A stretch of DNA of 64,000 nt from Catajapyx aquilonaris (Eukaryota), in the NCBI GenBank assembly GCA_000934665.2, contig KZ538450.1, forward strand, positions 1-64,000. The letters run 5' to 3'. Shown here piece after piece: positions 7,054 through 58,430 of the stretch (its first letter is position 1; each line of letters opens with the position of its first letter). Under the pieces are notes generated by a model. That model did not search any database and was not told the DNA's origin. It saw only the letters and a list, made by a program, of their open reading frames with translations. A program made the position numbers and the translations under genes.

Positions 7054-10000
7054 GTGTCAACATGTCCATGGTTATGTCTCCATAACAGTAACCATAAGCA
7101 TCACTCTTGTGCTTGCATAGTTTCTCTCCTATAATTTCGCTGCTTACTATGGCTCCTTCCTTTACTACTCTGACTTTAGCTGGAACCTGCAAGAGCACAT
7201 ATTTTTTTCCAATGGCTTTAGTATGATACAAAAGGAAGAATTACCTTTTTCTCTCGCTTCTTCTTCCAGTCTCCTATCATGCATAGAAGTTTTTCAGCAA
7301 TAAAAAAAAATTGGAGGCATATCAATGCCATGAGACCTTTCCAAACACCTTCTTCATGATGAGATGCTGCTTCATGAGAATGCTCATCATGATGACTCAC
7401 AATGCCTCCTGCTAGAGCCTACAAGCAGAATAATTTATTTTAACTGCAAAAAATTGATCCCCACAAAAGAGTTGAGATACTGACATACAAACAATGCCCT
7501 ACCCATCAAATGTACACAACGACAAATCTGGGGTTGATGCTATTCCTTTGGTAGAGCAATTGGGCCTAAATGTTCTATTACAATTGCAGTTGTGGGGAGG
7601 CGTGGTGGCCGAGACGGTATCGTCTCGGCTTGCTGTGCAAAAGGTCCCAGGTTTGAACCCTGCCCAGGAGTTCCCTTTCACCTGCATCAGAAGGGGCTCT
7701 GACACGCGCCTTGGAGGCGTCTGGCAACCTAACGTCCAGGGAGACTGCACATGACCCAGTTCAGACATTTGCACATGCACCCGTGTCTCCTCCCCAAAAA
7801 TTCCCATCCTACCCCATGTCCTTTCTTCCCTGCACAGAGTTGAAGAAAAACTAGAAAAACGAAAAATTGAAAATATGGTGGTATTCCACACCCCCTCTCA
7901 ATGATAAAACCAATAATTAATCCCTTTGCTACCAGCTAGGCCGAAAACAGCTAGATTTTAGCTTACGCCTACTCTGAAAATAAGCTGTTTTTTTACTAAT
8001 AATAACAGCTATATTTACCCATTCATGGAAAACACTCTTAATGTGTTGCAAACAATTTTACTCCTCTAGAAGTCCCTAAATTAATTTCCAAAAAGACCAC
8101 CTTAAAAACTCGATATTCGAGTACTGCCGGCCAACTGTTAGGCTGTTTTAATTATTAAATACGCTAAAATATACGGAACCACCACCTTGAGAATCGGGCC
8201 AGATGAATTATCTGAAATTGTCGTACTTTTCAAGAAATAAATTAATACTTATTTGTGGCTTTTTGACACTTCGTGAGAAGTAAATCAATTTGGGAGTTTT
8301 CCAAAGTGTCACTATCCAAGTTAAGTTACTGGTGCTAAGTACAGTACAATTCCACTAAGGCAATACAAAACAAATGCATAGTACATTACAGTACTTGATA
8401 AGAAAAAGATATTCATTGCTGGAGCGGGATGGTCGGATAATCGGGGTTCTACTGTATCTGGAAAGTCCCAAGGTGATGTACTGCACATGAAAGTATTGGC
8501 AATTATCGTGCATAATCCCATGGATTATACCCAAGAAAATATTGATCACTTGGTAGTGCTTCATCATAGCCTTGTTGTCAGATAATGCCAGTCTTCCACA
8601 CTGTAGTACTTACATGAGGCAATAGATGCAACAATGCATCCCCTGCCAAAGATCCAACAGCCAGTGCCACAAGAAATTGGGTCAGATGTTGATAAAACAT
8701 TTTCTGCATAACTGGAATTACTGCAACTCCCAGAAGGCCACACAAGCTGATGACAAGCACACTTGCCGAAGCATATAGCCAAACTAAAGAAGAAATATTA
8801 AAATTTAAAAAGTCAGAAAAGTGTCATGGGAAGACAAGATATTTACTAGCTCCATCAACTGTTCTTTCTTCTTCGTTATGAGGGTGATGGTTATCTAAAT
8901 GATCTGTACAGCTGGACTGTCGGCAGTGCTTCTGATCCAGTTCATATATTATAGCAGAACAAAGCTGAACAAAATTCGTAGGCAAGATGACGCTTTGATG
9001 AGGCTCCATTCCAAACATGGTGAGTAACTCTGGTGCAGTCAAACACTGAAACAACGAAAATATGGACACATTAACACACAGGAATATACAGTAAGGCAGA
9101 TTGGGGTCGGTTGTAACAGGGTATGGTTGTAACATCGCCAATAATAAATGCGTTTGGAAGGCCCTGAAGCTGAAACTCACACAGTACGTGTGTCACTATG
9201 AACTCTACGCCAGGCAAAACTTTGGATACTCCTTTTTTGTCTTTCGTTTTTCTATATGAAAAAAACCAAAATCAGGGTATGTTCCCAACTTTTTTGAGGC
9301 GCAGTAATTAAGTGATTATGTTAAGCGTTACTTAATTGCCCTTGGTATCATGAGAAAGGTTCCTTTAGTGGGGTCCCACTGAAGGCATGGATGACCAAAT
9401 CATGTGCACAGTCAAAAAGTAGTAAGCATATCTACAAGACAACACACAATGGGGACGGTTGTAACAACTTCCTTGGGGTCGGTTGTAACATGGTAAAATC
9501 ATAAGAGAAAGGTCAAGTCTGTGTACAGATGTTACAGATACATATCTCACAGGTTATTGAGAGTAGAAATAGTTATTATTTTGTGCAATAAAGCCGCTTA
9601 TAACCAGTTTGTCGAAAATTTATGAATAAAAAGTCAATTTTCTTGTAATACTTATATGCTGAATAAATTCCAGTGTATTGAGAGATAAATAGTAATCTAG
9701 GTGGATGAAGCAGGCTATAAGACAATTGTCAAGAAGATGAGTGGGTGTAAATTGTTCTTCCATATGACATTTTCCCTTAAAACATAGTGTTACAATCAAC
9801 CCCACCCTCTGATACAACGGCCCCTATGATGGGGTTGGTTGTAACACACTGCCTTGCCTTGGAAAAATATTTATAAACCTATCAATTTTTAATCTTAAGA
9901 TTTTATCATGTTAATTTTACAAAGAGGAATGTTGCCTTATTTCCAACATGTCATAAACCTTTGCCTAAATGCATATGTAACTCAATTTAAAAATCCAGAC

Positions 10001-13000
10001 TAAAAAGTGTTACATTACAACCGACCCCGATCTCCCTCGTAGGTATATATTTTTTGCTACAAAATCCTTCTCAAATAATCCACATACAGGGCAGGAGTAA
10101 GACTGAAGTTAACTGTGACTGGTTTCTCATTGCACTATTATTGGACTTCTCAAATGTAGGATGTTCCTACTGGATTGCTTGGAGTTGTCAGTGGTTTTCC
10201 CCCAACCCTCCTCACTGTACTAAGCGGTCTATTAGATGACCTGGACATTAGGCCTGGAAAAAGTCACTCTGAAACTTTAATCACAACCCATTGGCAGCTA
10301 AAGTGACAGAAACACCACCTTTTCCAGGCCAGAACCCCTCTCCTGTAATGGTCAGATGTCAGAGGGATTCTTCCCATTTACCCTAATGCTATCAGTTAAT
10401 ATTCTTGATAACCCCTAAAGGCAACTGTTCAAAAGTAGCTCCTTAAAAACAAGCAGCTTATTTCCAAAAAAAATCGCTAGCAACTACAATCCAGTTGAAC
10501 ACCCTATTTAGAGACAAAAAACCAATCTTCTGCCTGTGGCACTTGACAATACTTCATGGGAGTTCATAATGCATTACATATGCTCATTGATGCATGCCCA
10601 GGGCAGAGCAAAAACGTTTTCTGCCAAACCTACAGAAATTCTTCGCTTCTGTTGTTCCTCATTGCTACCATCTACGTGTGTACTCATGCGCATCTTACGC
10701 GAAAATGCGGGTTACCAAACAGGGCGTCTTTTTTTTGCACCTTCATTATTTCTTGTGTAGTCATTTGTCCCCAAAATTTCACAGCCATTGTCAAGCCTTT
10801 TGGTGAAAGGCGATCGGAAAATTGAAGGTCACAAGTGAAACTTTAAAAGTTTAAATGCTCGCTGTCGCAACACATTGTGCAAATTTCCCCCTGATTTTGA
10901 GCCAGCTTTAGTCCTTGCACGGAATATTTAACCCAACAAGATTGATCTGTTCAGCTATTTATGCAACCACATAATATCAGTGACGTCACAATAGGCAACA
11001 ATGGCTGCCAACAATCAAATGTGGTTACATCTCGCCTGCTCCTATCACAAAGTTCCCGAGAATCCAAAGAAAATCGGGAATCTCAAGGTCATGATCCCCT
11101 CGGGGGCGATATAAAAACGACAAGGTCATAACGGTACCACTGCTGCCCTTAACCCACAACCAATCCTCGTCTCTTGGTAATTAGGACTTGATGTGCACCC
11201 GTTTACTTTTTTTTCTGGGGTGGAGGAAGCGGGATCTAGATCCACTTTGTTTTCCTCCCGGTAAAGTGAAAAAAAAAAAAAAAAACTTTTTTGAAAATTT
11301 TTACGAAGTGTAAAAAGGAGAGAAAAGAGGTCCGCCGCGTTCGCATCGCAAGCCTTTATGTAAGGCCGTACTCTCTCATATATCCCTCAATGCAACAGTT
11401 CAATTCAGCGCGCGTAAATCCAATGACTATTCATGAAGCAAATCGCTTTTCGCCTTTCCAGGTGACCCCATTTCCTCCCACGAAGGTGTTCCGTTATTGG
11501 CTTCTTTATGAACCGATTCCGCGGCTCTTTGCCGGCAGCCGAGTGCGGTGCCGTAACCCAGCAAGGATCTCCGACCGCAAGCTCCTGTCCCGAAACTGGA
11601 TGTATCCAGTCACAGTGCACCATTTGCCATGAAGTTCACTCGCGACAGAGGATTGTGCTATGTGAATTTGGCGACCCACGTGAGTGATGGCTATTTTATG
11701 AGTGGTGACGGTGTTTTATATGGTTGCTGTCTAGGAAAGTCGCGGATGATTTCGTAAGATTTACATTTTAAAAAAAACACAGACATGCGTGAATTACTTA
11801 TTGTTTCATTTTTTTAATTTTCAAAAATGAAAAAATGAAAAAATGAAGAACACAATAACTAAAAAGCTAACATTTGTACAAGTATCCTACAATTACGATC
11901 CTATGCATAATTATATGGGTTAACTTGCTACCTACCTTATTTTCCATCACTTTGTGCAGCAGAAGGTCCTGAAATATTTAAAACGAGGAATGTGAGAACA
12001 ATAGCCTAACTACGACCAATACTGAAATGCAAAATTTGCACTTTAAAATAATGGTAGTGCATTTCATCATGTTGTGTTGCCTCTCCATGTCCAAATTGGT
12101 GTGCTTTTAAACTGGTTACATCATGCTGAACACTTCATCCATAAAGCAGGCATTTTAAATACAGTCGAACTAAATGGGTCCCACACCTATTCAGACAACT
12201 AAAACGTCAGATAATACCTAAACAGGCGGATTGGGATCAAGCTCATCGAAAATTAAACAAAAATAGCAAAAAATAAAATTTCACTAACTAAATTGTGATT
12301 AACCCTGGAACCGTGCTGTGGGGTCTTTTCAGACCCCAAAGGAATTAAAACGCTTTAAAATTAAAATTACAATGAACTGTTTGCCATTTTTTTAAAGTAT
12401 ATAACAGGAAGTGTATGTTTATTTTGAATTAGCGATCATTTTAGGCATTGTTCAAAGAATTATTGCATATAGTCAATACATTGAAAAGTATTATATAAAA
12501 ATTAATAAAAATTAAAATATGGAGTGGGGTCCTAAAAGACCCCATGGCACAGTTAACCTAACTTTCAAGCATGGCACGGTTCCAGGGTTAATAATTCTAT
12601 GACCAAAAATGGAACAAAGGTGGAGCACTGTAGAAAAATGAAGAGTGCAGAAGAAATTTTTTCCATCACAATTAAATTACAGTATAGTACCACCCACTGT
12701 AATGAGACCTTGTAAAATACGAGGGCCGTACTAAAATGATTTACAATTTTTTTTTGCCACAAATACAATGCCCGTACAGATCGGCAGATAGTCACACATT
12801 ATAGATAGAATCCTCCTGGAGCCAAATGCACTACCACCACAGGTGTGTCAACCTCTCCAGGCCCTCCAGGAACCACTTTTTGGAGGTGTGACGCACCCAA
12901 TACCGGACAACTGTGCACAATCAACAACGTAAACAACTGTCAACAATGCCCTTGGAATTGCGTCGCCGAAGTTTTTTTTTTCATGGATCCGGGTTTGGGT

Positions 13001-15133: not shown

Positions 15134-15204
<71 letters not shown>

Positions 15205-18200: not shown

Positions 18201-20527
18201 GAAAATACCTCAAATACTTTCTTATTTCAAATGCGAGAGATATGTCAATAGCAATCATATGATTCTTTTTCACCTTCGCTACAATTCCCCCNCCCCCCCC
18301 CCCCCCAACCATTCCTACATTTAGAAAATTGCCACCTCTTTCATAAGCCACAAGTTGGCAAGCAATAGAAAACAACTGAAATGACCTCCCTCTGTAGGCT
18401 ATCTCATGCTAGATAAAATCAACACACATGCATACGTCTCTAAATGAGCCAAGCTGAACATATCTACATGTAGGAAGCTCTTGACAGTTACGAAAAATGT
18501 GTCCCTGAAAATCGTCACATCGACCAAAAACAATCTTTATCGTACAAAATCAAGGATTTCATAACGGCAGGTGAACACTTCACCATATCATCATGTTAAA
18601 CTCTCAACTTTCTACTTTAACTGAAACTGTAAGTTTTAGTTCCTAACAATAACAGTCATTACAAATGATAACAAATGACTTTTTAGAAACGTTAAAGCTG
18701 ATGTTGAATGCACGGCTGTAATATCTTGCTGGAGGTGGTAGTGAAGGAAAGATGTTACTGGTATGAGGTCATTCAGGTAAGATGACTTGTACTTGATGGG
18801 ATATAAAATTCACTAATAGGCAACTTTTAAACTTTCCACAAGGCTGAGGAAGTGAAGTGATATTTACATGATTTTACACTGATCAGTAGGAAAACAATCA
18901 TGCTTGAAAAGTTCTAATTTTTTTTGAACATTGACCTTAAAGGCTTTCTTACTGAAATAGTCTGCACCCTTGCTGAAAGCATGTAGCTAAAAGAGCCACG
19001 TCACACCAACTTCACCTTATGCAATTCAATTGCCAAGGAAATGTGCAGCCAACTGCAAGGGTCTCTGAGCTGCATTCAGCTACAGATTCATCCAGCTTAT
19101 TTCAATGTAGTGTGAAAACCTAGACACTTACACTACAACAACATTGCCTGACATATTTGCATTTCATTCACTGCTTATCACATTACTTCAAAATTTTGTC
19201 ACTGAAAATTTTGCAAGAAGTGATGGTGCAGTAGATTCTCAGATTAATCAGTCAGAGTTACCTGAAATTAATTTGTCAGACCTGAACAGGACTGAGAGGT
19301 GTTCAGATAAGCAAAATGTTGGGTAACACGGAAGCAGGTGGGTTGGGAGTGAAATGGCAAATATTTACAAGTATAAACCTACAATGTGATTAACATAATA
19401 CAGGACAGACCTAATGTTACAAGACCTGATGTCAGTCAAGTATACTCAACAATGGATTTTAACTTCAGTGCAACATTTACTATCTAGTATGGCATCTATG
19501 GCGGTATTTGTGAAGCACTGGCACTGACGAGTAAAGCAGCTTTATAAATTGACAAAATATTGTACACAGAATGTAAACAGAATTACATCAGATAATCAAG
19601 GTTGAATTATCAAGACCATACTATATTAAGATACAAAAAAACTGCATAACTTGAGTGTTACACAAAATTTTATGACCATGACCCACAGAAGAAAAAAGAT
19701 CCTGCAGTCCACTCTGGCCATGTGCTCCAAAATCATACTATCATTTTCTAGTAAAATTCAAAGAAATAATTCACACATTCAATCAGATTGTGGCCCACCT
19801 AAAAGACCCTAGTAAACTTTTAAAACTACTGCTGCAAAGCATGTAAATCAAATTCACATAAAGATGTGTAACAAGCCAAGAGAACCCATAGTGAAGCACC
19901 TTATTTACAAATAAGTCATCAGTAGGTCATATACTTAATTTGTGATTCCTTACACGAATGGAAAAATCAATGGTTAAACTTACCAGTGTTGTTTGGAGTT
20001 CGTCTTCGCCTTGAATTGGGATCACTGACAGTGTAAGGCTCTTCTACAGTGCCAGAACCAGGCCTCCTTCTTCGCAAACCGTATTTCCTTCCCTTTGAAC
20101 TATGTCCTTCGCGTCTACTGCCATTTCCACCATGTTCTCCAACTCCCAACTTGACTGTGTGATTATGCTTGTGTACATTCATGGTATCATGAGGATCCAT
20201 GAGAGTTCCATTGTTTTTATGGACTGACGCATCATGGTTCTCAAAGTTTAACTGTCCCAAACCCAAATTGGCCAAGAGATGCTCAAAACCTTCGAAGGTC
20301 ATGACCCCGCCATTACCGTACTTGTGGAACAGCTGGTGCAGAAAGTACCTGTGGTCCAGATGAACCTCGCGTGTCCAAGCACTATAATCAGTTGCAAGTT
20401 GTGGGTCATTTTCCAACCCTCTCTGATCATCTGTTTGCACTTTGGTGGTTATGACTGAGCAATGGGTGTGGACAGCACAAACCACACACAAGATGCACGC
20501 TGTTGCAACACGTGTTTCTGTCCACAT
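7054..20527 (-). CDS. slc39a10: LIV-1 subfamily ZIP zinc transporter (ZIP10/ZIP6/foi-like), 5' part; remaining TM exons not found in window
   Basis: Phase-consistent GT-AG exons: 20527-19984, 17274-17177, 11968-11936, 9045-8847, 8783-8614, 7418-7245, 7186-7054. Signal peptide; 'YFLHQLFHKYG..MTFEGFEHLLANLGLG'; His-rich ectodomain; CPALLY-type motif 'FVQLCSAIIYELDQKHC'; TM1-3 'VLVISLCGLLGVAVIP..FLVALAVGSLAGDALLHLLPH..VWKGLMALICLQFFFIAEK'. Probable UTR acceptor at 20742. Confidence 0.9.
7594..7690 (+). mobile_element. tRNA-derived SINE head
   Basis: A box GTGGCCGAGACGG and degenerate B box GGTTTGAACCC; no intact cloverleaf. Confidence 0.55.
8341..8454 (-). mobile_element. Partial pogo/Tigger-like MITE (family of 31201-31606)
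   Basis: Terminus GGATAATCGGGGTTCTACTG|TA and adjacent sequence match the 31201 element in reverse. Confidence 0.65.
9089..10039. mobile_element. TA-flanked non-autonomous DNA transposon
   Basis: Inverted ends AGATTGGGGTCGGTTGTAA / TTACAACCGACCCCGATCT; internal GGTTGTAACA repeats. Confidence 0.65.
11323..11691 (-). ncRNA. Candidate Pol III (type 3 promoter) structured non-coding RNA, family unassigned
   Basis: CpG-rich island. On the minus strand: PSE-like TCATCCGCGACTTTCCTAG (11749-11731), TATAAAA (11720-11714), G at +1 about 29 nt downstream, no internal T4, then T4/T5 runs at 11326-11323 and 11316-11312. 5' stem GCCAT-CACTC...GAGTG..ATGGC. Confidence 0.4.
12303..12587. mobile_element. 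piggyBac-like MITE
   Basis: TTAA|CCCTGGAACCGTGC...GCACGGTTCCAGGG|TTAA. Confidence 0.85.
12720..13312. mobile_element. mariner-type foldback MITE
   Basis: TA|CGAGGGCCGTACTAAAAT...ATTTTAGTACGGCCCTTG|TA; palindromic over most of its length. Confidence 0.85.
13402..13688. mobile_element. hAT (Charlie-like) MITE
   Basis: TIR CAGTGGTTTCCAA; perfect 8-bp TSD CTCTAGGC. Confidence 0.9.
13971..14591. mobile_element. pogo/Tc2-like MITE
   Basis: TA|CCATCAAATGGGGTGA...TCATCCCGTTTGACGG|TA. Confidence 0.65.
15134..15203. repeat. (AAT)n microsatellite
   Basis: About 23 perfect units. Confidence 0.95.
16458..16603. repeat. Loopless ~145 bp palindrome (probable MITE)
   Basis: Arms centred on CAGTTAACTG (~16530). 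Confidence 0.8.
17420..17590 (+). mobile_element. tRNA-derived SINE
   Basis: B-box-like GGGATCAAATCCC followed by GGTTTTCTGTGGTTTCCC...GGCCACAGCCACTTCCTTCC body. Confidence 0.6.
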
Positions 20528-25821: not shown

Positions 25822-25869
<48 letters not shown>

Positions 25870-26131
25870 GGATACCCCATGATAGGCCTCTTTGGGCCTC
25901 TTAGGGGGGATCATCTTTTGAATAACCATCTTTAATCATTGCCTTTGCTATAATGGATTTTGATTGCGGGAGGAAATGGGAGAACCCTGAGAAAACCCAC
26001 ACGAACATGGAGAGAACCCATCGAAACTCTATCCACATAAGTATCCTCCGTCCGACCTGGGGATCGAACTCGGGACCTTAGAGGTGGAAGGCTGCCCGGT
26101 GGCGCTATAACCACTCTGCCACCGTGTCACC
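25822..26131 (-). mobile_element. tRNA-derived SINE with V-domain-like core
   Basis: A/B boxes, core GTGTGGGTTTTCTCAGGGTTCTCCCATTTCCTCCC, trinucleotide tail; homologous to 31822 and 47420 copies. Confidence 0.85.
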
Positions 26132-27660: not shown

Positions 27661-30600
27661 TTACTTTTTCAGCAGCATATCCTTGAATGGGTCACCCCTT
27701 ATCATGAGTGCTTTCTTCAGTTTAGAAGCTTCAGCTGACTTATCCATTTTTAGACTCTTTACTAATGCTTCCCCAAAGCGCTTCTCGACCTCACATGCCT
27801 CAATAAGTAGATCATAATCAACTCGTAACAAAATGTTCCACAGCCTTGTAAAGGCATACATCATCATAAACTTAACACAGATCTGGCGGATTTCATCATC
27901 AGGTGAGGTCATGATGTGCAAGACATTTATCAGTGACTCCCTAGTCTTCACACATGTATATAAGTACTTATGGATATTGGACAGTCCAAGTGAGGCCAAA
28001 TATTTTTTGTATGGCACCCGTGGTGGGCCAGAAGGTCTCTCTTCTTTATCTTGAGAATTCGCAGTTTCCTCTGCATTCGCATGTGTGAAGAGTTTATTCC
28101 TGATTTTAGTGCATCTTTCTTCCATTGCCTTGAGCCTCTCTGCACCAGCAAACTTCAAGTATGTAGTTATTGCACACTGAAGCACTTTTGGTGTGCAGAG
28201 TGACATAAAAACACTTCGAAATACAAAGTCGCAAGACGTAGACAAATTACAAAGCTTGTATCGTTGTGGATTGTGGGAACATTGTGATAAATCTTGCATC
28301 TTATACTCAAGCTCGTGTGTTACACCAGAACTTTCAGCCAAGAGGACAAGCTGCTCACATTTGGCAGTCAATTTGAACCAGCCAATAATCTGACTTTCTG
28401 TAAATTCTTTGGCATCATTCAATTCATCAATGACCTCATCCAAATATCTTCTCACATCCTCCAGGACATCTGCCCTGCACAGTTCATCAAGAGGTTCTGA
28501 AAGAGGCAACAAGTTAATACTTATTAATTTTTTAGTGAAATCATAAGCATCAATATTGGACCCACACACTGTGTACACATGGTTGAGAATTGAGCTCATA
28601 TCCTGTATACTGATGGAAATTGAACGGATTCTTGTCCTTGTGAACTCATCTTAAGTTTAGAATCGAATCATACACATTCATGTGGAAAGCCTGTTTCATA
28701 GGCTTGCCAATAGTGTAACATGCACTGCCACACTTGAAGGTGAGGCAACTGGAATGAGAGGAAATGTATGGTACAACGACGAGATATTTACCAATACGAA
28801 CATGAGGTCAATTCTTACGTGAGATGCACAGTAGGGTATAAGGCTTCTGTACATATTTCAAATGTCTCTGAAAAATGTGTTACAATGATATAACTTAGTA
28901 GTCATTTTCATGCATTATTATTGTAATAATTATTTCTTTTAGAAATACATTCATAAATCATGGCAAGGTAATCTCATAGATGAAGTTAGTATCAACATGA
29001 TGGATAGTTAAAACTGCTGTCAGATTTTTAGCGCGAGTGTCAGTCCAAAAATTAATAGAATTATTCAGGGTGTTTCACTAGGACGGTAGTCCCCCCCAAA
29101 GAATCGATGATATTTTCCTTCCTATTCTACCTAGAAACATGATGTATGGTTTAAAATTTACCTTAGTTCATGAGAATGTACCACCATTCACAATAAATGC
29201 TGTATGTGACCTTCAACTACCTACATACACACGCTAACGTGACTTGACGCAATGCTCCTTATTATCGAAGGCCCTCCACAGCATATAAACATTAATAGTC
29301 AGGATTGCTACACCAAGTGTTTTGGACCAATACAATGGTAGATGTCCTCCTTTAGAGGAAGAAATAAAATCGAAAAATTGAAGCACAGGCTGCTGGAATG
29401 AACAAAAAAGTAACTACGATTTTATCACAAGAAACCGAGTCTTCTGTTTCCACCTGTCAAAAGAGCCGCTAACGGGGATATTTGAAGAGTTGTGCTTACA
29501 ACAGTGAGCCTCAACATTAGAAGACTTGGAAAGCAACATTAATGCAGCAGATCCGGACCATTTATGAGGATATCCTGCGGAGGATCTTCGATAATAAGGA
29601 GTATCGAGTCGAGTCGCATTTGAGTGTGTATGGAGGTCGTTGAAGTTCAATTCCATCATTTATAATGAATGGTGCTATATTCCCATGAACTGAGGTTACT
29701 TTGAAATCAAACAATATAGAAAAATATAGACGATTCTTTGGGGGGAATACCTAGTGAAACACCCTGTAGAAACACTATGGAGTAACCTAGATTTCAGGGT
29801 TTTTATTGTGATGTATTATTAATCCATCCCAATCACATTTCTACCTGTTCCAGAAGCTAATAGAGGTGTATTAGCATATGTGAAGGAATTTTCTACAACG
29901 TCAAATGGCAAAGACATCCTACATTTCATCATTGCCCATGTTACATTTGTCTGCAGTTTCCCCCATTGCAATTTTATGTTTCCCCCAGGAGGTTAGTCCA
30001 GCAGAAATCTCATCCAAGATGGAGATAACCCAATGAATCTACACAAATGAGAAAGTCAAGTCAGGACTTGGGATTACACCCCTCTGTCAGGGAAATCATT
30101 ACCTCTACACTACTCCATCTCCCCTTGTTAGGTGTAACTACCTCTACCAATTTCAATTAAAAAAAGATACCGTCATCTTGTTTTCCCATGCATAAACTAG
30201 TATGCTACTCGATGCAAGAGGGGATTCAACTTTACCATAAACCAGGGAGGCGGAGTGGCACTGCGGAAACGTATGCGCCCATGGATGTAAGGGTCCTGGG
30301 TTCGATCCCAAGTCCGGGCTTTCCCCCCTCCATCTCGTGCAGAGCTGGGTCGTCTCTGGCTTCATCTCAGGTGGGATTCATTTAAACTAACCACCCAAGG
30401 GAACTCACAAAATGACCATATGAGACATTGAAGGGAGGCGAAGTAACGTACGCACCCATAGATGTTAAGGTCCCGGGATCAAATCCCACCCTGGGACACC
30501 CCCTTCATCTCGTGCAGAGTTCAGGGTCACCTCTGGCTTTGTCTCAGGTGGTATTTCCGTTAAGACAAACCACTGGGGGGAGTTCACTAAAAATAGCCAC

Positions 30601-30743: not shown

Positions 30744-30781
<38 letters not shown>

Positions 30782-32712
30782 ATTATTATTATTATATGAG
30801 ACATTGCACTGCAACTTGCACTTCCCCTCCCACTCATCCCTGCCCGTGGGCCCAGGCGCTTCGTTAAAGGTTCCAGCTGTACAAGTACAATGTACAGTAC
30901 ATGAAGTTAATAATAAAGGTCCATGTGATTCGCCAAGAGGGGTCAAAGCACTACCCGGATTATTTTTATTTTAAAAAAACAACTTTACCATAAACCAGAT
31001 TTAGTAGATCAAACACTTTTGCAAGGCCTGGAAATTCTATCCTTAGTTGTTCCCTGTCAGGAGAGTTCTTCGGGCGGTTCAACATGTACAACCAAACATT
31101 GCTGCTGAATATATCAGTTTTTTTCTCAGGTGCAGACTGAAAAAAACAATACATGACATTAAAAAGTTATTCTGGTTGTGAAAGTGTACTTATTAATATA
31201 CAGTAGAACCCCTATTATCCGACTCCTCGGATTATCCGACTGTCCCGCTCCAGCAATAAATCTATGTTTTCTCATGAAACAATGTAGGCTACTGTTCTAT
31301 ACGGATTTGTTTGTTTTGCCTTAGTTAAATATTGTAAATACAGTACAGTACAGTGTGTGTAAAAGAAATATACTTCACTATTTCTTAGATAACCATAACA
31401 TTAATAATAATAATAATGGATACCCCGATGGAAGGCTTTGGCGATAACCACAACACCACCGTGCTGTCCATAACATATAATGTTGTACGTTATGTCATGT
31501 TTTTTGTTTGTTTATTAAAGTTTTTTTACTCCTTGGATTAGCCGACCTTTTTGGTTATCGGACGATGCCCCACTCCCGCGGGTGACGGATAATCGGGGTT
31601 CTACTGTACATAGGGTGTTCCAAGTATCAGCATTGTTTTTAGTTAGTGCTAATATTGCCTGAAGTAGTTATTTTTCGTAGCCTGTTGCACCCTGATTGAG
31701 GTGCCTAAATGATACAGAAACTGCTACATTTGACCTCCTGGGAATAACTTGGCACCTGGATCAGAGAGCAACAACCTACACAAAAACTGCTTCAGGTGAT
31801 TTAGTAATTAGTGATAACTACAGGGCGGCATGGTGGTGTAGTGGTTATCGCCACAGCCTTCCACCTCTGAGGTCTCGAGTTAGATCCCGGTTCGGACGGA
31901 GGACACTTATGTGGATAGAGTTTCGATGGGTTCTCTCCGTGTTCGCATGGGTTTTCTCGGGGATCTCCCGTTTCCTCCCACAATCGATCAAAACCTATCA
32001 CAGCGCAAGCAATGAATAAAGTCTATCAAACCAAAGATGATCCCTATGCGGCTCAAGGAGGCGTATCACGGGGTACTGGTATCTATTTATTATTAGTGAT
32101 AACTAAAAATGACCCTGAGACTACGTATAGCACTATAGCTGTTATTATTTGTAAAATGTCTTGTCCGTATCTTCAGAGCACGTGTAAGCGACAACCTAGT
32201 CGATGGCGGTATAGCTGCCTAGCTGGTAGCGAAGGGGTTTAAAAGAAGAACTGAAATAAGAGCAAAAACATTCCCTTCAGGGAAAAAAGGGTAGTCAGAC
32301 ATCCGCCGTGGCGGAATGAAGGTACTGAAACAAGGCAGGCGCACGTAAGACCTGCACTAATTGATTTAAGCTGTACCATAGGTCTTACTCAAGCAATTCT
32401 GAAGTACTGTATGGAACGGCTCTGAAAAATTGCTGCTGTAAACTACTCAGAGCAGTAGTCAGGGTTTTATTTTGAAAAGAAAAAAGAAGAAGAAGGTGGT
32501 ATTTCCACAGACTAAACCACCCGGGGGAGTTCACTAAAAATGGCCACATTAAGACATTGCACTGCACCTTGCACACCCCCTCCTGTCATCCTGCCCGTGG
32601 GCCCAGGCGTTACGTATAAAGGCTCCAATGTACATGACATAATAAATAAAGGTCCGTGCTGCATACTTCAGATGAGGTCAAGCACTACCCCGGATTATTA
32701 TTATTATTATTA

Positions 32713-32810
<98 letters not shown>

Positions 32811-35800
32811 ATTATTGGTGAATGTTTTACGTGCGCCTGCCTTGTTTCAGTACTTTCATTCTTCCACGGAGGTCTTACTACCCTTTTTTCCCTGAAGGGA
32901 ATGTTTTTGCTCTTATTCAATACCATAATCAGAACATCAACTCCCGAATTTTCACTGAACATCACTGTTGCTGGGGGTGCAAGTAGCTCACTATACTTAC
33001 TGCAGACATAGCACTTGCGCCCTCTTCATGCCCTTCCACGCCACCTCCACATGCACCTTCATCTGCTGCCTGAATATCGGGAGCCGGTCCGGTCTGGAAG
33101 GATAACCTGATTTAAGCACATGACTTGGCTGGCTTATCATGCTCATTCACCCCCATATTGGTTGGGAGAGTTAGTGAACTGGAAACATGTATGTGAATAT
33201 TTGTTTCTGCTGGTAACTCATATGGCTTAAACTCGGAGCACACAGTGCATGTGTTTCAGTGTCCATCAATAAATTTCATCACATGCTTCTTTTTATCTTT
33301 CGTTCACAAATCACAGGTGTCTGCCGTGTAGTGTACTTCATTTTCGTATTATTTCTGCTAAGGGTTACAGGCATTATAAGTTCAAGTACCTTAGTGCCCC
33401 AGGCCACAGTTTATTTGTATGCCAAAGCAAGATAAACTAGGCCTATATCATTATTTGCCAAAATCAGTGTCACATCAGTAAGATACATTATTAAACTTTT
33501 GTGTAAATGAAGTTGGGGATAAAGTAGATACCAGTACTAGACAAATTACATTCAGACCTGAAAATTAATTGACTTCAAAATCGCTGAATATTGACATTGA
33601 ATATCTGATAATAATAATGACATCAGTGAATTTCCTTTGAACGTCTGTGTTGCTGTAAGTGTAGGTGAATTAGTAGCGCACTCCTTACCCTTGAGATTCC
33701 ACTTGCACAGTCATCATGCTCTTCCTCTCCACCCCCACATGCACCTTCATCTACTGCCTGAATGTCGAGAGTTGATATCTTCTGGAAATATGAGTAATCA
33801 GAGTTAAGCATGACCCATCTGGCTGACATTGCTCATTAATCTTAATAATGATGGGAAGAGTCATAATCTTTTAGGAAGCAGGTTTCATGGGCTTACTGCT
33901 GAGGGCTATATACACTGCTATATATATGTTAGGAAAAAAGCTACCATACATCAGCAATGCACCAGTAAAGTTGGGTGTTGCTCATCTGCCTCCATTAGAC
34001 AACCGCAACTGAAGTGAAGTCGAGCTACGCCTGCATTGCTGGTTGGAACTGCAGGTAGTAATTACAGTACATCATTCCCTCATGCTGTGCAAGGTGAGGG
34101 AATGATGACCTCAGTTAAAATGGCCCCCTGACTGGCGCGCTTACACTTTTTGACCGAAACAGGAATACGATCATGTTCTCCCACATGTAAGACACCCTTT
34201 CATGGTGTTTCTTCCATATGAGGGTATACAGTTAAGTTTACTTACAGAGCAGCGAGGGAATGACAATTATGCTAAACACGCAGCAGTTTTCTCCCTTTGA
34301 TGCTCAACTCTACCTCCTCTGCCAACCTGGGACTGACTGACACATATTGGGCTGCTTCACAAGACTGGCCAGAACATAATAATTATGGTCGTGACTTAGA
34401 GCACTTGCCACCCATCTGGTGGCAAGTTATATGGCCTGACAGGTAAAAGTGAGGGAATAATGAAATTTACGTGGGACAGCATGTAAGGCTCACCCGTTCA
34501 GAGTAGTTTCATCAGGTGCAATCATTTCTGCATCATTACGTCATTTTCAACAATGGAGAACATGCTCTGCCCAAGAATAAACTGATACTCACGGTACATC
34601 GAGATATATTACAGCTTGTAGTACTGAAAATGCAAATTGGGACAAGTGAGGGAATGACATTTCACTGATACGGTAATTTTTCTCTTCTAAGCAAATTATG
34701 CTAAAGCTATTTGACATATTCCCTACATTGTGCCCCTTAGGGGCTGTCCAAAGAAAATATGAAACAGTGAACAGCATCACGTAGTTGACATATGGTGAAA
34801 GGACATCACTTTGGCCTGTTGCGTGAGAATGACCCACATAGCCTCTGCAGCACCATGTGTATCTTAATTTTAGGGGCAACTGTTATACTGGAAAATTAGC
34901 TCTATAAATATTTGGAGCACTGCCAGATAATTGGGAATTATGGTGTGACCTTCCTGATGAAACGTTACCATGAAGTGGGGGTACTTTGTACCAATTTTTG
35001 GTTATTTTGGTTAATATCTCCCTTACTATTGCAGTTTCGAACTCTACAAAATTATGCACCATTCTTGAACATCTTAGCAACACTTTCGCACTATTGTTCT
35101 TGCAGTGCAGATTATATAACACTACAGAAAATGGCAAAGTTGGACTAAAGTAGCCCCATGGGGTGACTTTAGTCCAGTATGAAGAACCCCTTGGAAAAAT
35201 GTCCGTGGTTGAATTAAACCCCATTAATAGTCCAGATAACACAGAGTCCAAGACATGTGTACATCTTGGAGATGTGAGGTACCTTGGATATACAGTAGAA
35301 CTTCTATAAGTCGAATCTCCATGGGACTGGAAAAAAACTTCGAGTTATAGAAGATTCGAGTTAGAGAAGTTTGGCTTTTTTAAAGCACAGAACTCTATAA
35401 GGAAGCCTACCTTTATATCCAGCGACAAAAGGTGTTCAAAACTTAAAAATAACTGTCACTATCACACTCAATATTCCTCATTGTTTTGTTGTAAAAAAAA
35501 AAAAAAAATCTCCATTATGGACATTTGCCTACTCTTAGATTCAAGGATTCAATTGTCACAATCGAATCAAACACTTCTTTCGGTATGTCTGGTAGACAGA
35601 GATCAGGAAATTGAGCCTTTCTGTGCATGTGGCCTACTCTCGACCCTTCGGCTGGAAAATGAGAAAAGTTTCCGTACTCGCCAACATGAACTTCGACTTA
35701 CGGAGACTGAAAATGCATTGATATCCCATGGTAAGGCCCTGCCAGTACTTCGAGTTATGGAGAACCTCGAGTTAGGGAAGTTTATTTCCTATTATTTCAC

Positions 35801-38087
35801 ATCGTGGTCCAACAAAGCTCATAATTTTCTTCGACTAATAGAGAACTTCGACTTACGGAAGTTCGACTTATAGAAGTTTTACTGTATTTCAAAACAGCAG
35901 TAGGGTATGTTTGTCTGAATAGGCTGCATTTTTAAATCATATTTTGTCTGAATAATCAAATACATTAGTACAACTGCTACTGGTACGGTACTACATTGGT
36001 AATGGCATGGAGACACTTTTTAAACTCACTGACTGTACCCAGAGAGTCCAGTTTATCATGGCCATAATGTCCCACAGTCTTGGGGCTTCTTTGATCTCAG
36101 AATATTATGGACCAAAATAACCCCATCACTTACAACTTTTTTTATTATTTCTATTTCCCTCACAATTCCTGATAAGAATTATTTCGTGACTTACATATGC
36201 CTGGAACGGGAACTAAATGTACTACAAATCCTCGCATGTTAAATGCAGGTGATACCTACTCGTGTGGATGCACCAGTCTTAGCAGTACGGACTTCTTGAA
36301 GACACGTGCCAAAGAGTGCCAAGGTGACTCTTGTGGAAAGTAGCCCTGTGCTGGCGGGTTTTCAAACTTCAATGCATGATACATTTACCACAAATGTCAC
36401 CACTCCTTAGTGATTCTGACTGTGCTTATTATATGTAGTTAGTGTCATTACCTGCCATCTGATGCATTTTTGAAGTACTTGGTACGTGCTTGGACCACAG
36501 TAGTCCCACTAGGATCTTATGGTATTTAATTACTTAAGCTAAGAAAATATTCAAAAGTAGACATCATTAAATTATTCTGATGTGACTGTGATCCTTCTGC
36601 ATTTCAACTCTTCTTGTATTTGGACAAGCTATTTCAGATGAGTGTGTTCAATTACTTTCAATTCAAAGCCCCCTACCTTTTATTTTTCTGTGCAAATCAC
36701 TGGGAGCCTGATATTTAGTTATTATAATAGTACTTACTGTACACTCAAAGTAGCCTCTATTATCACCTGCAGACCAGAATTTATTTTCATATCAGGGCAA
36801 AACAAACATTACCATTATTTGCCACACACACTGACACACCAGTGAGAGAAATTAAATATTTTGCACAAATGAAGTTGGGAATAAATATTAGTCTATTATA
36901 TCCAATGCTGAAAATTAATACAGGGTGTTTCAGAGTCACAGGTCAAGCGCGCGCGAGGGGGTGGGGAAAAATCGTAGGTGGTGACTACCCGGGTCGGTTT
37001 TATAAAACAATTAGAAATACAGCAGTAATCAATTTGTTTATTAAGGCCGTATGGCATGACGTCACGTCCTTTCTGTACTCGAAATTACCCCGCGGAGTGG
37101 CAAATGCAAGGCAAATGCATTCGCGGTGGAACCTGCATGGACGGGTTTTTAGCCTTGTGGGTTGCCCTGAAAAAGGCGTTCTCATGCTACACCGGCAGGG
37201 TACTGTACAACGTAGTGTACTACTGTACAGTGGTGTGTTCAGTACCCTGCCGGTGTAGCATGAGAGCGCCTTTTTCAGTGCAACCCGCAAGGCTAAAAAC
37301 CCGTTCATGCAGGTTCCACCGCGAATGCATTTGCCTTGCATTTGCCACTCTGCGGGGTCATTTCAAATACAGAAAGGACATGACGTCACGACATACGGCC
37401 GTAATAAACAAATTGATTACTGCCATATTTTAAATTGTTTTATAAAACCGCCCCGGGTAGTCGCCACCTACGATTTTTCCCCACCCCCTCGCGCTCGCTT
37501 GACCTGAGTCTCTAACACCCTGTATACTTTACAATCACTGAACATTGGTATTGAGCACTGGACATTCAGGATATCATTGATTTTTACTGAACATTACATC
37601 TGTGTCACTCAGGCTCAATGAGTCCCATAACTCCTCCCGCACCGTAGGGCCTACAGCATTGGGAGTGATGTCAACATTTTTCCAGCGTTTTCTACATTTG
37701 AAAGCCACTTTTGATTTTCGCAAACAGTGCCAAGGGACTTTGTGAACCACAAAAAACCATGGAATTTGCCACGACAGCAGTCCCATGGAATTCCCCATTC
37801 CGCCATTCAGGGCGCCACCTGCTTGATTGCGACCGTGGTTGCGACTCGCTTACTTCTGCACTTTACCGTCGGATGTCACTACATGGTACATCGGCGAGCC
37901 ATCTCCTTAAATTCTTTAATTGTCACTGCCATACTGATCATGGCTTTTGCCAAATTTTGGCAACCAGCTAGGTCACTATAGTTATACTTACTACAGTAAT
38001 TTCACTGGCACAATCATCATGCTGCTTCTCCACTCCACCCTTACTTGTGCCTTCATCTGTTGCCTCCATTCCGGTAGTTGGACTATT
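27661..38087 (-). CDS. Uncharacterised multi-exon protein; large terminal exon 28609-27661; 5' end unresolved (possible ATG exon near 39420)
   Basis: 312-codon ORF 27661-28599 extends via phase-consistent exons 28609 (acceptor ttccatcag), 28748-28674, 28867-28819, 31136-30989, and phase-0 exons 33093-33001, 33781-33689, 38087-37992. Possible extra exons 30143-30103 and 30038-29845. No family recognised. Confidence 0.65.
29066..29766. mobile_element. Tc1/mariner-type foldback MITE (uninterrupted copy of the 1861 family)
   Basis: CAGGGTGTTTCACTAGG...CCTAGTGAAACACCCTG|TA with ~220 bp arms. Confidence 0.88.
30245..30965 (+). mobile_element. Tandem cluster of tRNA-derived SINE copies with (ATT)n tails
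   Basis: Heads at 30245 and 30432 (B box GGTTCGATCCC / GGATCAAATCCC); 3' end AAGCACTACCCGGAT(ATT)n seen twice; other copies at 32495 and 57421. Confidence 0.8.
31201..31606. mobile_element. pogo/Tigger-like MITE
   Basis: TA|CAGTAGAACCCC.ATTATCCG...CGGATAATCGGGGTTCTACTG|TA. Confidence 0.85.
31822..32095 (+). mobile_element. tRNA-derived SINE with V-domain-like core
   Basis: Homologous to 25822 and 47420 copies. Confidence 0.85.
32255..32916. mobile_element. Inverted-repeat element with a 5'-truncated SINE and (ATT)n (32495-32815) inside
   Basis: ~90 bp inverted arms AATAAGAGCAAAAACATTCCCTTCAGGG... / ...CCCTGAAGGGAATGTTTTTGCTCTTATT. Confidence 0.75.
35293..35884. mobile_element. pogo/Tigger-like MITE
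   Basis: TA|CAGTAGAACTTCTATAAGTCGAA...TTCGACTTATAGAAGTTTTACTG|TA; internal TTCGAGTTA repeats. Confidence 0.88.
36921..37522. mobile_element. Tc1/mariner-type foldback MITE, ~600 bp near-perfect palindrome
   Basis: TA|CAGGGTG...CACCCTG|TA; arms ~285 bp give mirror-image ORFs. Confidence 0.9.
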
Positions 38088-38881: not shown

Positions 38882-39779
38882 TTAATGATTTGGGCAAGTC
38901 ACTTAGGAAGTCTCCACTTATGCAGTCTGGACTTTCTTATAAGTTGAAAATACTGTACAATCCATGAATATCCAGCTGAATTATGTTAATCCAAGGGCCA
39001 TCCTACACTAAAACATAAAGAGGACTTACCTCTCTATTCAGCAAATACAGATACAGGGGCTCACTGCAAAAATTACATGTAATAATAGGCATTAATGTTT
39101 CGTGAGTCACGTTAGTATCCACTTCTGCAGTCAAAGTTCAATGGCCATCCTGTTCTCTATTTTGCCCTACATTAGTTTTGGAGAAAATCATATGTCTTTC
39201 CACAAGTTATCCATCCGGCAGACTCAAAAAGTGGGTGGGGTAGCAGATATCTGGTTGATATATATAGAGTCTCCCCACTTCTAAACAATCAACTAATGTT
39301 GATTGTTTAGAAGTGGGGAGACTCTCAACCACCGCCCTACAGAGAAGAGCACTACGCCGCAAGTCTTAACTCATTGTTACTTACATTCTTATCATTGTTG
39401 AAACTCATACTTGTCGCCATGATGATGCCAGCAGTTGTGTACCTTTGTTCGCTACTAGCAGGCTCTTCCTTCCAGTTTCTGCACTCCCCACCACCACACC
39501 ACTACCCCATCACAGGTTCCTTTATCTTTATGGCCCTCCCAGATCGCACATGTCCCTATATGCTGACCTTGGCATTCCGACGTCCATGCACAATCCACTC
39601 TCATATTTCCTACATGGCCAATCGTTTATTCCTTTCGTACCATCCCCAATCCCACACTCACTCGATGCACACTAGCTGCTTGAAACCCACGCAGAGCCCC
39701 CACCGGAACACCCACCGACGGAGCACGTTCTGGAATCTCTTCCTTCGGTATGCGTCAACACCTTCCCGCGCCAACATGC

Positions 39780-40080
39780 CCTGGAAGTTTGGAATTGGAA
39801 TATCGATAAACCTATATCGTTCAACGATAAATATCGTTAAAGTTCTTGGATCTGTATGACTGTGTATGACACTGGGTTTGTGACTTACATTTACATCCAG
39901 CCTAAGTCCGGATGTCCCACATGAAAATACATCGAGCGTTTAGCATCAGCGTTGCAATTTGTGAGATTCGCAGTAGAATACTAATATATCGATACGAATA
40001 TCAATACAAATATCGTCTGCACTAGTATCGATACATGAAATATCGATATATCCACCTGATCCAATCCGGAAGTGGCGACG
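39780..40080. promoter_or_regulatory. Probable bidirectional promoter with DRE (TATCGATA) cluster
   Basis: Four perfect TATCGATA palindromes (39801, 39987, 40026, 40041), near-matches, and an ETS-like CCGGAAGT (~40067), in CpG-rich DNA between divergent genes. Confidence 0.6.
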
Positions 40081-40625
40081 CCTTACTTCGTCATGTTCTA
40101 AACAGTTATAAAATAATAATATATTAGTTACATCTAGTCATGGAATCCCACCCAACTGTTGCACCACTCAATCCCGTAGCAGCACATCATAACATCTGCT
40201 TTAAAGAGCTAGTTAAATACTATTTGACAACTAACGTACTAGCCGGTACTAGCCCTGCCATCCATATCAGGCATAAATCGTACCTGCTACAAGACTGCTA
40301 TCTTATAACATATCCACATAACTATTACAAAAATAGCTGCTGCGCTACTTCATCTGACGATTATAACGACTACGAAATACAGTAATCACCTGTAGTGTAC
40401 AACTAGTACAAGTGTTAATTACTTTTCCGTAGTTTGATATAGTAAATAGGTACGGAGTTGGTGCGAATGTGTTATTGAAGACAATGCGTGTTTTGATGCA
40501 GACGTCATTTATGGCGTGTGATGCAGGATAATAGCAAGAGGATAATCTGCTTAGGAGTTGAGTCCTGCAGTTTGTGAAGAGACTTTAAGTAATAGAAAAC
40601 TTCCAACATTCAACATTGTGTTGGG

Positions 40626-47419: not shown

Positions 47420-47700
47420 GGGGGCGACATGGTGGCGGAGTGGTTAGCGTCACAGCCTTCCACCTCTAAGGTCCCGAGTTCGATCCCCGGGTCGCGCAGA
47501 GGATACTTATGTGGATAGAGTTTCGATGGGTTCTCTCCGTGTTCGCGTGGGTTTTCTCGGGGTTCTCCCGTTTCCTCCCGCAATCAAAAAAATCCATCAC
47601 ACGCAGGCAATGATTAAAGTCGGTTCACGAAAAGAAGGTCCCCTAAGAGGCCCAAGGCCTATCATGGGGTATCCATTATTACTATTATTACTACTACTTG
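47420..47700 (+). mobile_element. tRNA-derived SINE with V-domain-like core
   Basis: A box GTGGCGGAGTGG, B box GTTCGATCCC, V-like core, ATT/ACT tail. Confidence 0.88.

Positions 47701-58363: not shown

Positions 58364-58430
<67 letters not shown>

Follow-up and report, generated by a model that had tools for sequence, protein, structure and literature searches.

A type-3 Pol III-like layout in a foi/ZIP10-type intron of Catajapyx aquilonaris is more likely non-genic than a new RNA gene

Does the first intron of a zinc-transporter gene in Catajapyx aquilonaris contain a Pol III RNA gene of no described family, or does the DNA there imitate one? A preliminary description of the 64,000-nucleotide stretch analyzed here (contig KZ538450.1, positions 1 to 64,000; referred to as the window) had proposed a structured RNA gene of about 370 nucleotides (nt). 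If this were a true Pol III RNA, an arthropod would have gained a new gene of the snRNA class. For most arthropod orders, telomerase RNA and 7SK-like RNAs are described as still unknown or sampled only poorly (PMC9841428, PMC12133305), and such candidates thus merit a cheap check.

The proposed location in a ZIP transporter intron was borne out. When eight arthropod foi/ZIP10 proteins were compared with the window by tblastn, the only matches, each on the minus strand, were at 20512-20210, 9126-8545, and 7412-7040; the Zip domain was also recognized by Pfam. The start codon and signal sequence are located in host exon 1. A search with the ZIP exon returned 979 relatives; of the 120 best, those that carry names come from arthropods, and none is near-identical. 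No relatives of the ZIP N-terminus or of a 329-aa open reading frame (ORF) of the window were recovered in the homologue search. The Pol III-like unit (minus strand) lies in sense orientation inside the first intron (~11 kb) of this foi/ZIP10-type arthropod gene.

The type-3 layout that had been claimed, namely, a box resembling a proximal sequence element (PSE), a TATA box, a purine start, and a stop in T runs, is present on the minus strand, and each element was found exactly where it had been placed (Table 1). The TATA box falls within ~30 to 23 bp upstream of the putative start G. The T-run block would stop Pol III, and it is also plain AT-rich flank.

Table 1. Positions of the candidate unit, its surroundings, and the host exons in the window
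Feature	Position	Strand	Remarks
Host gene exon 1, foi/ZIP10-type N-terminus	20210..20512	-	tblastn and BLASTP to arthropod foi proteins
Following host coding exons, ZIP domain start	8545..9126	-	Pfam Zip, E 1.2e-12
21-bp frame aligning the box as an insect-type PSEA	11733..11753	-	T of TATA (11720) set as position 34
PSE-like box TCATCCGCGACTTTCCTAG	11749-11731	-	Exact match; centre 49 bp upstream of G 11691; putative function
TATAAAA box	11720-11714	-	Read from the sequence
Putative start G	11691	-	First T of TATA lies 29 nt upstream
Putative transcript body, G to base preceding first T4	11691-11327	-	365 nt; no TTTT inside
5'-terminal hairpin, stem GCCATCACTC (11691-11682) with GAGTG..ATGGC (11641-11626)	11626..11691	-	Predicted; begins at predicted +1
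6-bp stem with 4-nt loop (ACTGGA/TCCAGT), ACTGGATACATCCAGT	11610-11595	-	Fold; sequence
T-run block	11326-11269	-	T4 11326-11323, T5 11316-11312, T4 11297-11294, T17 11285-11269
CpG-rich patch containing the unit	11051..11830	.	43 CpG, o/e 1.11; one of 20 in the window
Second raised-CpG block, past the T runs	10600..11260	.	Contains TGACGTCA palindrome at 10988-10981
Left arm of perfect 12-nt inverted repeat (TTTTTGAAAATT)	11288..11299	.	Low complexity, possibly chance
Right arm of perfect 12-nt inverted repeat (AATTTTCAAAAA)	11816..11827	.	AT-rich

How distinctive is this layout within the window? TATAAAA occurs 24 times (7 on the minus and 17 on the plus strand), and stretches of at least 330 nt that lack T4 are common (38 on the minus and 44 on the plus strand). 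At a T content of ~24%, we estimate from composition that a 365-nt body would lack TTTT by chance with a probability of roughly 0.3 to 0.4. A T4-free body followed by a T-run terminator is thus found here but is not distinctive in the window. The candidate body is free of T4 on its own strand only, the RNA itself containing AAAA, and it has a GC content of 0.53 and a CpG observed/expected ratio (o/e) of 1.08. A T4-free body of 150 to 600 nt follows 28 of the 107 TATA[AT]A sites, and a single one of these 28, the candidate, has a body with both GC of at least 0.5 and CpG o/e of at least 1. This conjunction of features is the best of its kind within the window.

We compared the upstream box with the promoter rule established for insects. 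Insect Pol III promoters of the snRNA type (U6, U6atac, and 7SK) are reported to consist of a 21-bp PSEA, a 12-bp spacer, and an 8-bp TATA element (Hernandez, Valafar and Stumph 2007, PMC1761439). In the same account, T5, C6, and C8 of the insect PSEA are given as invariant, with C occupying position 8 in all 23 insect Pol III PSEAs and in 95 of 101 Pol II PSEAs (PMC1761439). Aligned in this frame, the candidate resembles such promoters in the distances of box and TATA from the start, in having T5 (11749) and C6 (11748) with TATA at positions 34 to 41, and in the T runs that follow the body. It differs in having T rather than C at position 8 (11746) and A rather than G at position 42, and no snRNA-like product was recognized at the candidate. 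The rule was derived from six holometabolous insects and may not be that of the host, and the alignment itself hinges on which base is counted as the first of TATA.

A promoter-like box counts as evidence only once it has been compared with the snRNA promoters of the same genome. The window has no snRNA genes detectable by Rfam, and the box (5' part GAAATCATCCGCGAC...) occurs in it once, even when up to three mismatches are allowed. A U6 motif scan of genome contigs returned 14 loci from unrelated organisms, none of which matches the box in an arthropod-like way. One of these loci (L007) has ATCATCCG in common with the box, again 22 nt away from a TATA-like element; we treated this as chance because its U6 is of a non-arthropod type that itself contains TCATCCG. 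Nothing in the genome behind L007 matched the candidate (best E, 0.2). Two identical GC-rich loci from unrelated organisms, recovered in a metagenome scan for the box together with U6, were likewise judged to be chance, and a search of the literature for the letters of the box returned nothing related.

The unit had also been described as encoding a structured RNA, a label that the analysis did not support. The 5' stem and the palindrome are present, but the fold of the whole RNA is no better than that of shuffled sequences: its minimum free energy is -114.4, whereas shuffles average -116.4 (z = +0.37). Of 100 shuffles, 59 fold as well or better, and a second shuffle test gave z = 0.05. Only nt 1 to 70 stand out (-17.7 kcal/mol; z = -2.14 against 150 shuffles), with nt 71 to 170 at z = -1.7. 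The 3' third has a z above 0, and for this reason the GC-rich hairpin proposed to precede the T run is not significant. A stem-loop with a 6-bp stem and a 4-nt loop, as at 11610-11595, is expected by chance about 0.5 times per 370 nt (an estimate).

That the unit carries no diagnostic match to known RNA families, as had been noted by eye, was upheld by model searches. No match reached the gathering score of Rfam anywhere in the window, in a search whose control recovered U6 at 110 to 118 bits in fetched loci. With E values up to 10, the region from 11200 to 11850 gave eight weak matches, all with E of at least 1.6 and none relevant; five of the eight are microRNA families, and four of these five lie in the AT-rich upstream DNA. 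The segment from 11310 to 11695 had one match only, a CRISPR repeat at E 9.5, and the segment from 10400 to 11330 had none with E up to 5. A tRNA scan of the window found no genes. A 76-aa minus-strand ORF was tried as a coding sequence and rejected: its one match (E 9.9e-5), to a repetitive peptide, was judged spurious, and Pfam found no domain.

In size class, Pol III-type layout, G start, CUCUUUU end, and 5'-terminal hairpin, the candidate is like canonical 7SK RNA. The marks of 7SK, as published, are a GG start and two AUCUG motifs 8 nt apart together with repeated GAUC in the 5' hairpin, the Drosophila RNA being 444 nt long (PMC3384314; on the GAUC repeat, PMC2995076). The candidate instead starts with GCC and has no AUCUG, and its single GAUC (nt 123) does not lie in the 5' hairpin; 7SK families were absent from the Rfam matches on the region at E values up to 10. 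A precedent is snRNA:7SK:94F of Drosophila melanogaster, a 404-nt 7SK-like RNA gene in the intron of a protein-coding gene (PMC8406779). It is reported to have a PSE, a weak TATA-like element that its authors credit with only slight similarity to TATA, a double T tract, and the 7SK-like motifs M1, M3, and M8; the RNA is expressed, conserved among drosophilids, interrupted by internal T tracts, and probably made by Pol II (PMC8406779). The two share a length of a few hundred nt, an intronic position, PSE-like and TATA-like elements, and T tracts at the end. The 7SK-like motifs of snRNA:7SK:94F, in contrast, were not seen in the candidate.

Neither RNase MRP nor RNase P, families modeled with a P4 pseudoknot of CR-I and CR-V, was among the Rfam matches at any threshold used, and the CR-I-like strings that were looked for are absent. 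The RNase P RNA of insects and crustaceans is embedded in introns in sense orientation to its host gene, an arrangement that the candidate shares, although it has no RNase P match in Rfam. A CR-I/CR-V pairing like that of RNase P was seen by eye and rejected for want of model support. Insect telomerase RNAs with snRNA-type promoters have been reported, in Hymenoptera with Pol III promoters (PMC9841428) and in Coleoptera (PMC13023368). The candidate resembles them in combining a type-3-like promoter with an arthropod host, and this class of RNA evolves too fast for family models; the candidate differs in that no template-like run was found for the 13 telomere repeat motifs tested, a set that may not include that of the host. 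A telomerase template would span at least one telomere repeat plus some redundancy and have a pseudoknot 3' of it; the longest run in the candidate is 8 nt (CCAATAAC), for one 8-nt motif, with no redundancy. No TTAGG or TTAGGG runs of 5 nt or more are present in the candidate, and the tandem repeats of the window include nothing telomeric.

Read as a real type-3 gene of no described family, the unit would be bound by SNAPc at the box and by TBP at TATA, would start at G 11691 and stop in the T4/T5 runs, and would yield an snRNA-class RNA of 365 to 380 nt with a 5'-terminal hairpin of the U6/7SK kind. Judged from the sequence, we consider this improbable. The geometry does fit an insect snRNA promoter, down to the T5/C6 pair and the position of the box centre, and the strand-specific T4-free body is followed directly by T4 and T5. 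The hairpin predicted from +1, the segment after it (z = -1.7), the intronic Drosophila precedent (PMC8406779), and the candidate's standing as the sole one of 107 TATA sites with a long GC- and CpG-rich T4-free body also argue for a gene. On the other side stand the T at PSEA position 8, the lack of an Rfam match, of 7SK marks, and of a telomere-template-like run, a whole-RNA fold that does not exceed shuffles and is worse in the 3' third, and a CpG enrichment that carries on past the terminators. By our estimate, moreover, a genome contains tens of type-3 genes but a great many CpG patches. The tests run gave no support to a Pol III gene beyond the layout. A lineage-specific RNA of ~370 nt with a PSEA and TATA promoter of its own, perhaps a 7SK-like regulator that has diverged strongly or a telomerase RNA from a lineage with a telomere repeat outside the tested set, is accordingly a long shot. 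Base rates favor chance or a non-genic origin over a new Pol III gene.

The composition of the region suggests what the block may be instead. The preliminary description had remarked on a CpG-rich island, and the contrast with the intron stands: from 11312 to 11700 the CpG o/e is 1.09 and the GC content 0.51, versus a CpG o/e of 0.43 to 0.47 in the surrounding intron. The island is not unusual, however. The window as a whole is CpG-depleted (o/e 0.25 to 0.82 per 2 kb), yet patches with 16 or more CpG per 300 nt number 20 in it, and at least 10 of these 20 overlap repeats found in the window, including copies of a tRNA-derived SINE; young repeats are therefore the usual source of such patches here. 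In addition, raised CpG runs ~700 nt past the supposed terminators, to ~10600, and this second block is not explained by an RNA gene. The edges of the candidate block are sharp against flanks of 21 to 37% GC.

Most likely, then, the region is a CpG-undepleted patch, being either a recent insertion or promoter or regulatory DNA free of methylation. Our preferred interpretation (probability, roughly 0.4) is that the candidate is not an RNA gene but an intron block with undecayed CpGs, a young insertion being the most probable source. In this scheme, a GC-rich block of ~0.45 kb, unique in the window, would sit within a raised-CpG patch of 0.8 to 1.2 kb in the foi/ZIP10 first intron, its CpGs having escaped decay most probably because the block is a fairly young insertion. 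TATA, the "PSE," and the T runs would fall within the strongly AT-rich DNA that flanks the block on either side, or at its border, where motifs of this kind abound, and these flank motifs, presumably there by chance, together with a T4-poor GC-rich body would imitate a type-3 Pol III unit. The case thus illustrates that a GC-rich, CpG-undepleted block in AT-rich flanks can take on the appearance of such a unit.

The preliminary description had reported no terminal inverted repeats, target-site duplication, or second copy. Indeed, no second copy of the candidate was found in the window, where blastn with word size 7 gave only A-run matches of at most 25 nt, and no target-site duplication was found around it; an AT-rich perfect 12-nt inverted repeat nevertheless brackets the unit. 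This repeat and the sharp block edges favor the reading as a non-genic insertion, as do the empty Rfam result, the shuffle-like fold, and the mismatch at PSEA position 8. Against it count the lack of a second copy in the window, the missing duplication, the low complexity of the inverted repeat, and the absence of transposon domains, none of the three ORFs of at least 85 aa within 10547-11629 matching Pfam. A solo LTR with TGTAAA...TTTACA ends at ~11765 and ~11308 was rejected, since there is no target-site duplication and TATA is too close to the 5' end. Three further observations count against this reading: the conjunction seen at 1 of 28 TATA sites, the 5' hairpin located exactly at the predicted start (z = -2.1), and T5/C6 at insect spacing from TATA.

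The same composition would also suit a Pol II promoter or regulatory island internal to the gene, that is, a germline-unmethylated patch with TATA-directed sense initiation near 11691-11685, which we regard as possible though on balance doubtful. Transcription from it would give the zinc-transporter gene an alternative 5' exon or else produce a separate non-coding RNA, and the T runs would be irrelevant to Pol II. A start here would skip exon 1 with its start codon and signal sequence, no signal-peptide ORF or evident splice link to the next exon was seen, and edges that are sharp on both sides are module-like rather than those of a promoter shore. Still, an undepleted patch inside a window that is CpG-depleted throughout suggests protection from methylation; TATA is found at the patch's upstream edge, and CpG is raised for ~1.1 kb downstream along the direction of transcription. 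An E-box (CACGTG, 11682-11677) and the TGACGTCA palindrome (10988-10981) lie within this span. Elsewhere in the window, CpG patches without overlap to its repeats occur just upstream of coding exons, for example, at 39511-41100 before the Cation_efflux exons at 41389-42659.

The layout of the candidate unit is real: the PSE-like box, TATA, start G, body lacking any run of four T (T4), T4 and T5 runs, 5′ stem, and palindrome all lie where the preliminary description had placed them, and beyond its T4 and T5 runs we found a further T4 and a run of 17 T (T17). As an RNA gene, the unit is unproven and remains a candidate only. Its proposed location in an intron of a ZIP transporter gene was borne out. 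The host gene encodes a LIV-1-type zinc transporter and shares the minus strand with the candidate; a Pfam Zip match at 8578-8823 marks one of its exons. This exon has 979 relatives; within the best 120, the proteins that carry a name come from arthropods, chiefly insect "zinc transporter foi" along with ZIP10-like proteins of a scorpion and a horseshoe crab, at 57 to 86% identity and none near-identical. By tblastn, eight of these proteins matched only at 20512-20210, 9126-8545, and 7412-7040, which, with the Zip match, places the candidate in sense orientation within an ~11-kb intron of an arthropod gene.

Features of the candidate unit, and microsatellites in the window
Feature	Position	Strand	Basis
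PSE-like box TCATCCGCGACTTTCCTAG	11749-11731	-	sequence reading
TATAAAA	11720-11714	-	sequence reading
Predicted start G	11691	-	29 nt past first T of TATA
Putative RNA body, 365 nt, without TTTT	11691-11327	-	
T runs	T4 11326-11323; T5 11316-11312; T4 11297-11294; T17 11285-11269	-	
5′ stem	11691-11682 paired with 11641-11626	-	
Small hairpin	11610-11595	-	
(TAA)n/(ATT)n microsatellites	15134-15203, 25822-25869, 30744-30795, 32694-32816, 58364-58429		

We compared the box with PSEA, the insect snRNA-promoter element. For six insects, Hernandez et al. (PMC1761439) place PSEA at positions 1 to 21, the U6 TATA at 34 to 41, and the PSE center ~50 to 55 bp upstream of the start, and give T at position 5 and C at positions 6 and 8 as conserved in 23/23 insect Pol III promoters. 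With the T at 11720 taken as position 34, an alignment that depends on which TATA base counts first, the box carries T at position 5 (11749), C at 6 (11748), and T at 8 (11746); its center lies 49 bp upstream of 11691. Read this way, the geometry would agree with that of insect PSEA and TATA while one invariant base (C8) fails, and the six-insect rule may not hold here. The window contains no snRNA gene, and a U6-motif scan of a collection of genome contigs from other organisms returned 14 contaminant loci, none with an arthropod-like box. At one of these (L007), on a contig of eukaryotic contamination within a bacterial MAG, ATCATCCG is followed by 22 nt and a TATA-like TATCATATG (199-237), with U6 at 263-368. 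L007 shares the core and spacing of the candidate, but there they sit 5 nt farther from the start; we judged the match to be chance because the U6 of L007 is nonarthropod and itself contains TCATCCG. Two identical GC-rich loci from a metagenome scan, in which the box core lay at the right distance from U6, were likewise judged to be chance.

The putative RNA matches no recognized family among those searched, as its reported lack of known-family motifs had suggested. Rfam gave no matches in the whole window at the gathering score and nothing relevant on the candidate region at E up to 10, RNase MRP and RNase P included, and recovered U6 at 110 to 118 bits in control loci. Measured against the 7SK marks in PMC3384314, the RNA has no AUCUG, one GAUC (nt 123), and a GCC start. 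The body holds no template-like run for TTAGG, TTAGGG, or 11 other repeat motifs; the best match to these 13 is a single one of 8 nt, without redundancy. The molecule had also been called structured, which found no support for the whole: it folds at −114.4 kcal/mol versus −116.4 ± 5.3 for shuffles (z = +0.37), and 59/100 shuffles fold at least as well. Locally, z is −2.1 for nt 1 to 70 (the 5′ hairpin from +1), −1.7 for nt 71 to 170, and above 0 for the 3′ third; the predicted 5′ hairpin stands out, the GC-rich 3′ hairpin is unsupported, and the former is the sole structural point favoring an RNA gene. We found no coding signal: Pfam gave no matches, and a 76-amino-acid open reading frame had one borderline match, to a repetitive peptide.

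How common are such features? T4-free stretches of at least 330 nt number 38 on the minus strand and 44 on the plus strand of the window, and a GC-rich body within flanks of 21 to 37% GC naturally leads one to expect a T4-free interior and a T-rich exterior. TATAAAA occurs 24 times. Each feature on its own is therefore weak evidence. Their conjunction is the best in the window: a T4-free body of 150 to 600 nt begins at +29 for 28 of the 107 TATA[AT]A sites, and only the candidate among these combines GC ≥0.5 with CpG observed/expected (o/e) ≥1. Real type-3 Pol III genes number tens per genome; conjunctions of this kind, which we put at roughly one in every 64 kb, are far commoner than the genes themselves. 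Given these base rates, a new Pol III type-3 RNA gene is improbable, despite modest points in its favor (promoter geometry, the 5′ hairpin, and the strand-specific lack of T4); its closest described parallel is a Drosophila intronic 404-nt 7SK-like RNA gene (PMC8406779).

We favor, at a probability of roughly 40%, a young or neutral insertion carrying chance signals. The GC-rich block ends abruptly on both sides, and a 12-nt inverted repeat, perfect but AT-rich, flanks it (11288-11299 and 11816-11827). The preliminary description had seen no terminal inverted repeat, target-site duplication, or second copy in the window; the last two are indeed absent. At the candidate's strength (≥16 CpG per 300 nt), the window holds 20 CpG-rich patches. 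Ten or more of them overlap in-window repeats, tRNA-derived SINE copies included; this is a lower bound because 25 of the 99 inverted pairs were among the matches listed. The body is CpG rich (GC 0.51 to 0.53; CpG o/e ~1.1) relative to the surrounding intron (CpG o/e 0.43 to 0.47) in a window that is CpG depleted overall (o/e 0.25 to 0.82 per 2 kb), as described, but it is not a closed island: raised CpG runs on past the T runs to ~10600. That downstream DNA contains the palindrome TGACGTCA (10988-10981), CACGTG occurs at 11682-11677, and other CpG patches, clear of in-window repeats, are found immediately upstream of coding exons, as before the Cation_efflux gene; these observations would fit a Pol II promoter inside the intron or a regulatory island, a somewhat unlikely reading. 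Either an insertion or a Pol II patch would render the Pol III-like signals incidental. The rest of the probability falls to explanations outside those considered.

The window holds other elements. A Cation_efflux/ZT_dimer (ZnT-type) zinc exporter gene at 41389-42659 (+) lies ~20 kb from the ZIP importer on the opposite strand, making the two zinc transporters neighbors; CpG-rich patches upstream of it (39511-40120 and 40751-41100) look like its promoter. The tRNA-derived SINE-like family (7595-7660, 31823-31995, and 47422-47595; inverted copy, 25958-26094) has a tRNA-like head and a common ~110-nt body, with copies 88 to 94% alike and still CpG rich; ARAGORN called none of them a tRNA. An 18-nt direct repeat (14/18 identical) at 11251-11268, just past T17, and 11471-11488, inside the putative RNA body, is possibly due to chance. 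A 329-amino-acid open frame at 27661-28650 (-) has no Pfam family and no relative among proteins of 180 to 576 residues. At 36927-37518, a CpG-rich 294-nt inverted repeat (90% complementary, arms 4 nt apart) could form a long hairpin. The 64 kb also carries five microsatellites of the (TAA)n/(ATT)n type, with 16 to 41 units each, and, in DNA with strong CpG depletion (o/e 0.25), an exon encoding a protein kinase domain (Pfam Pkinase, E = 2.9e-13) at 54982-55536 (-).
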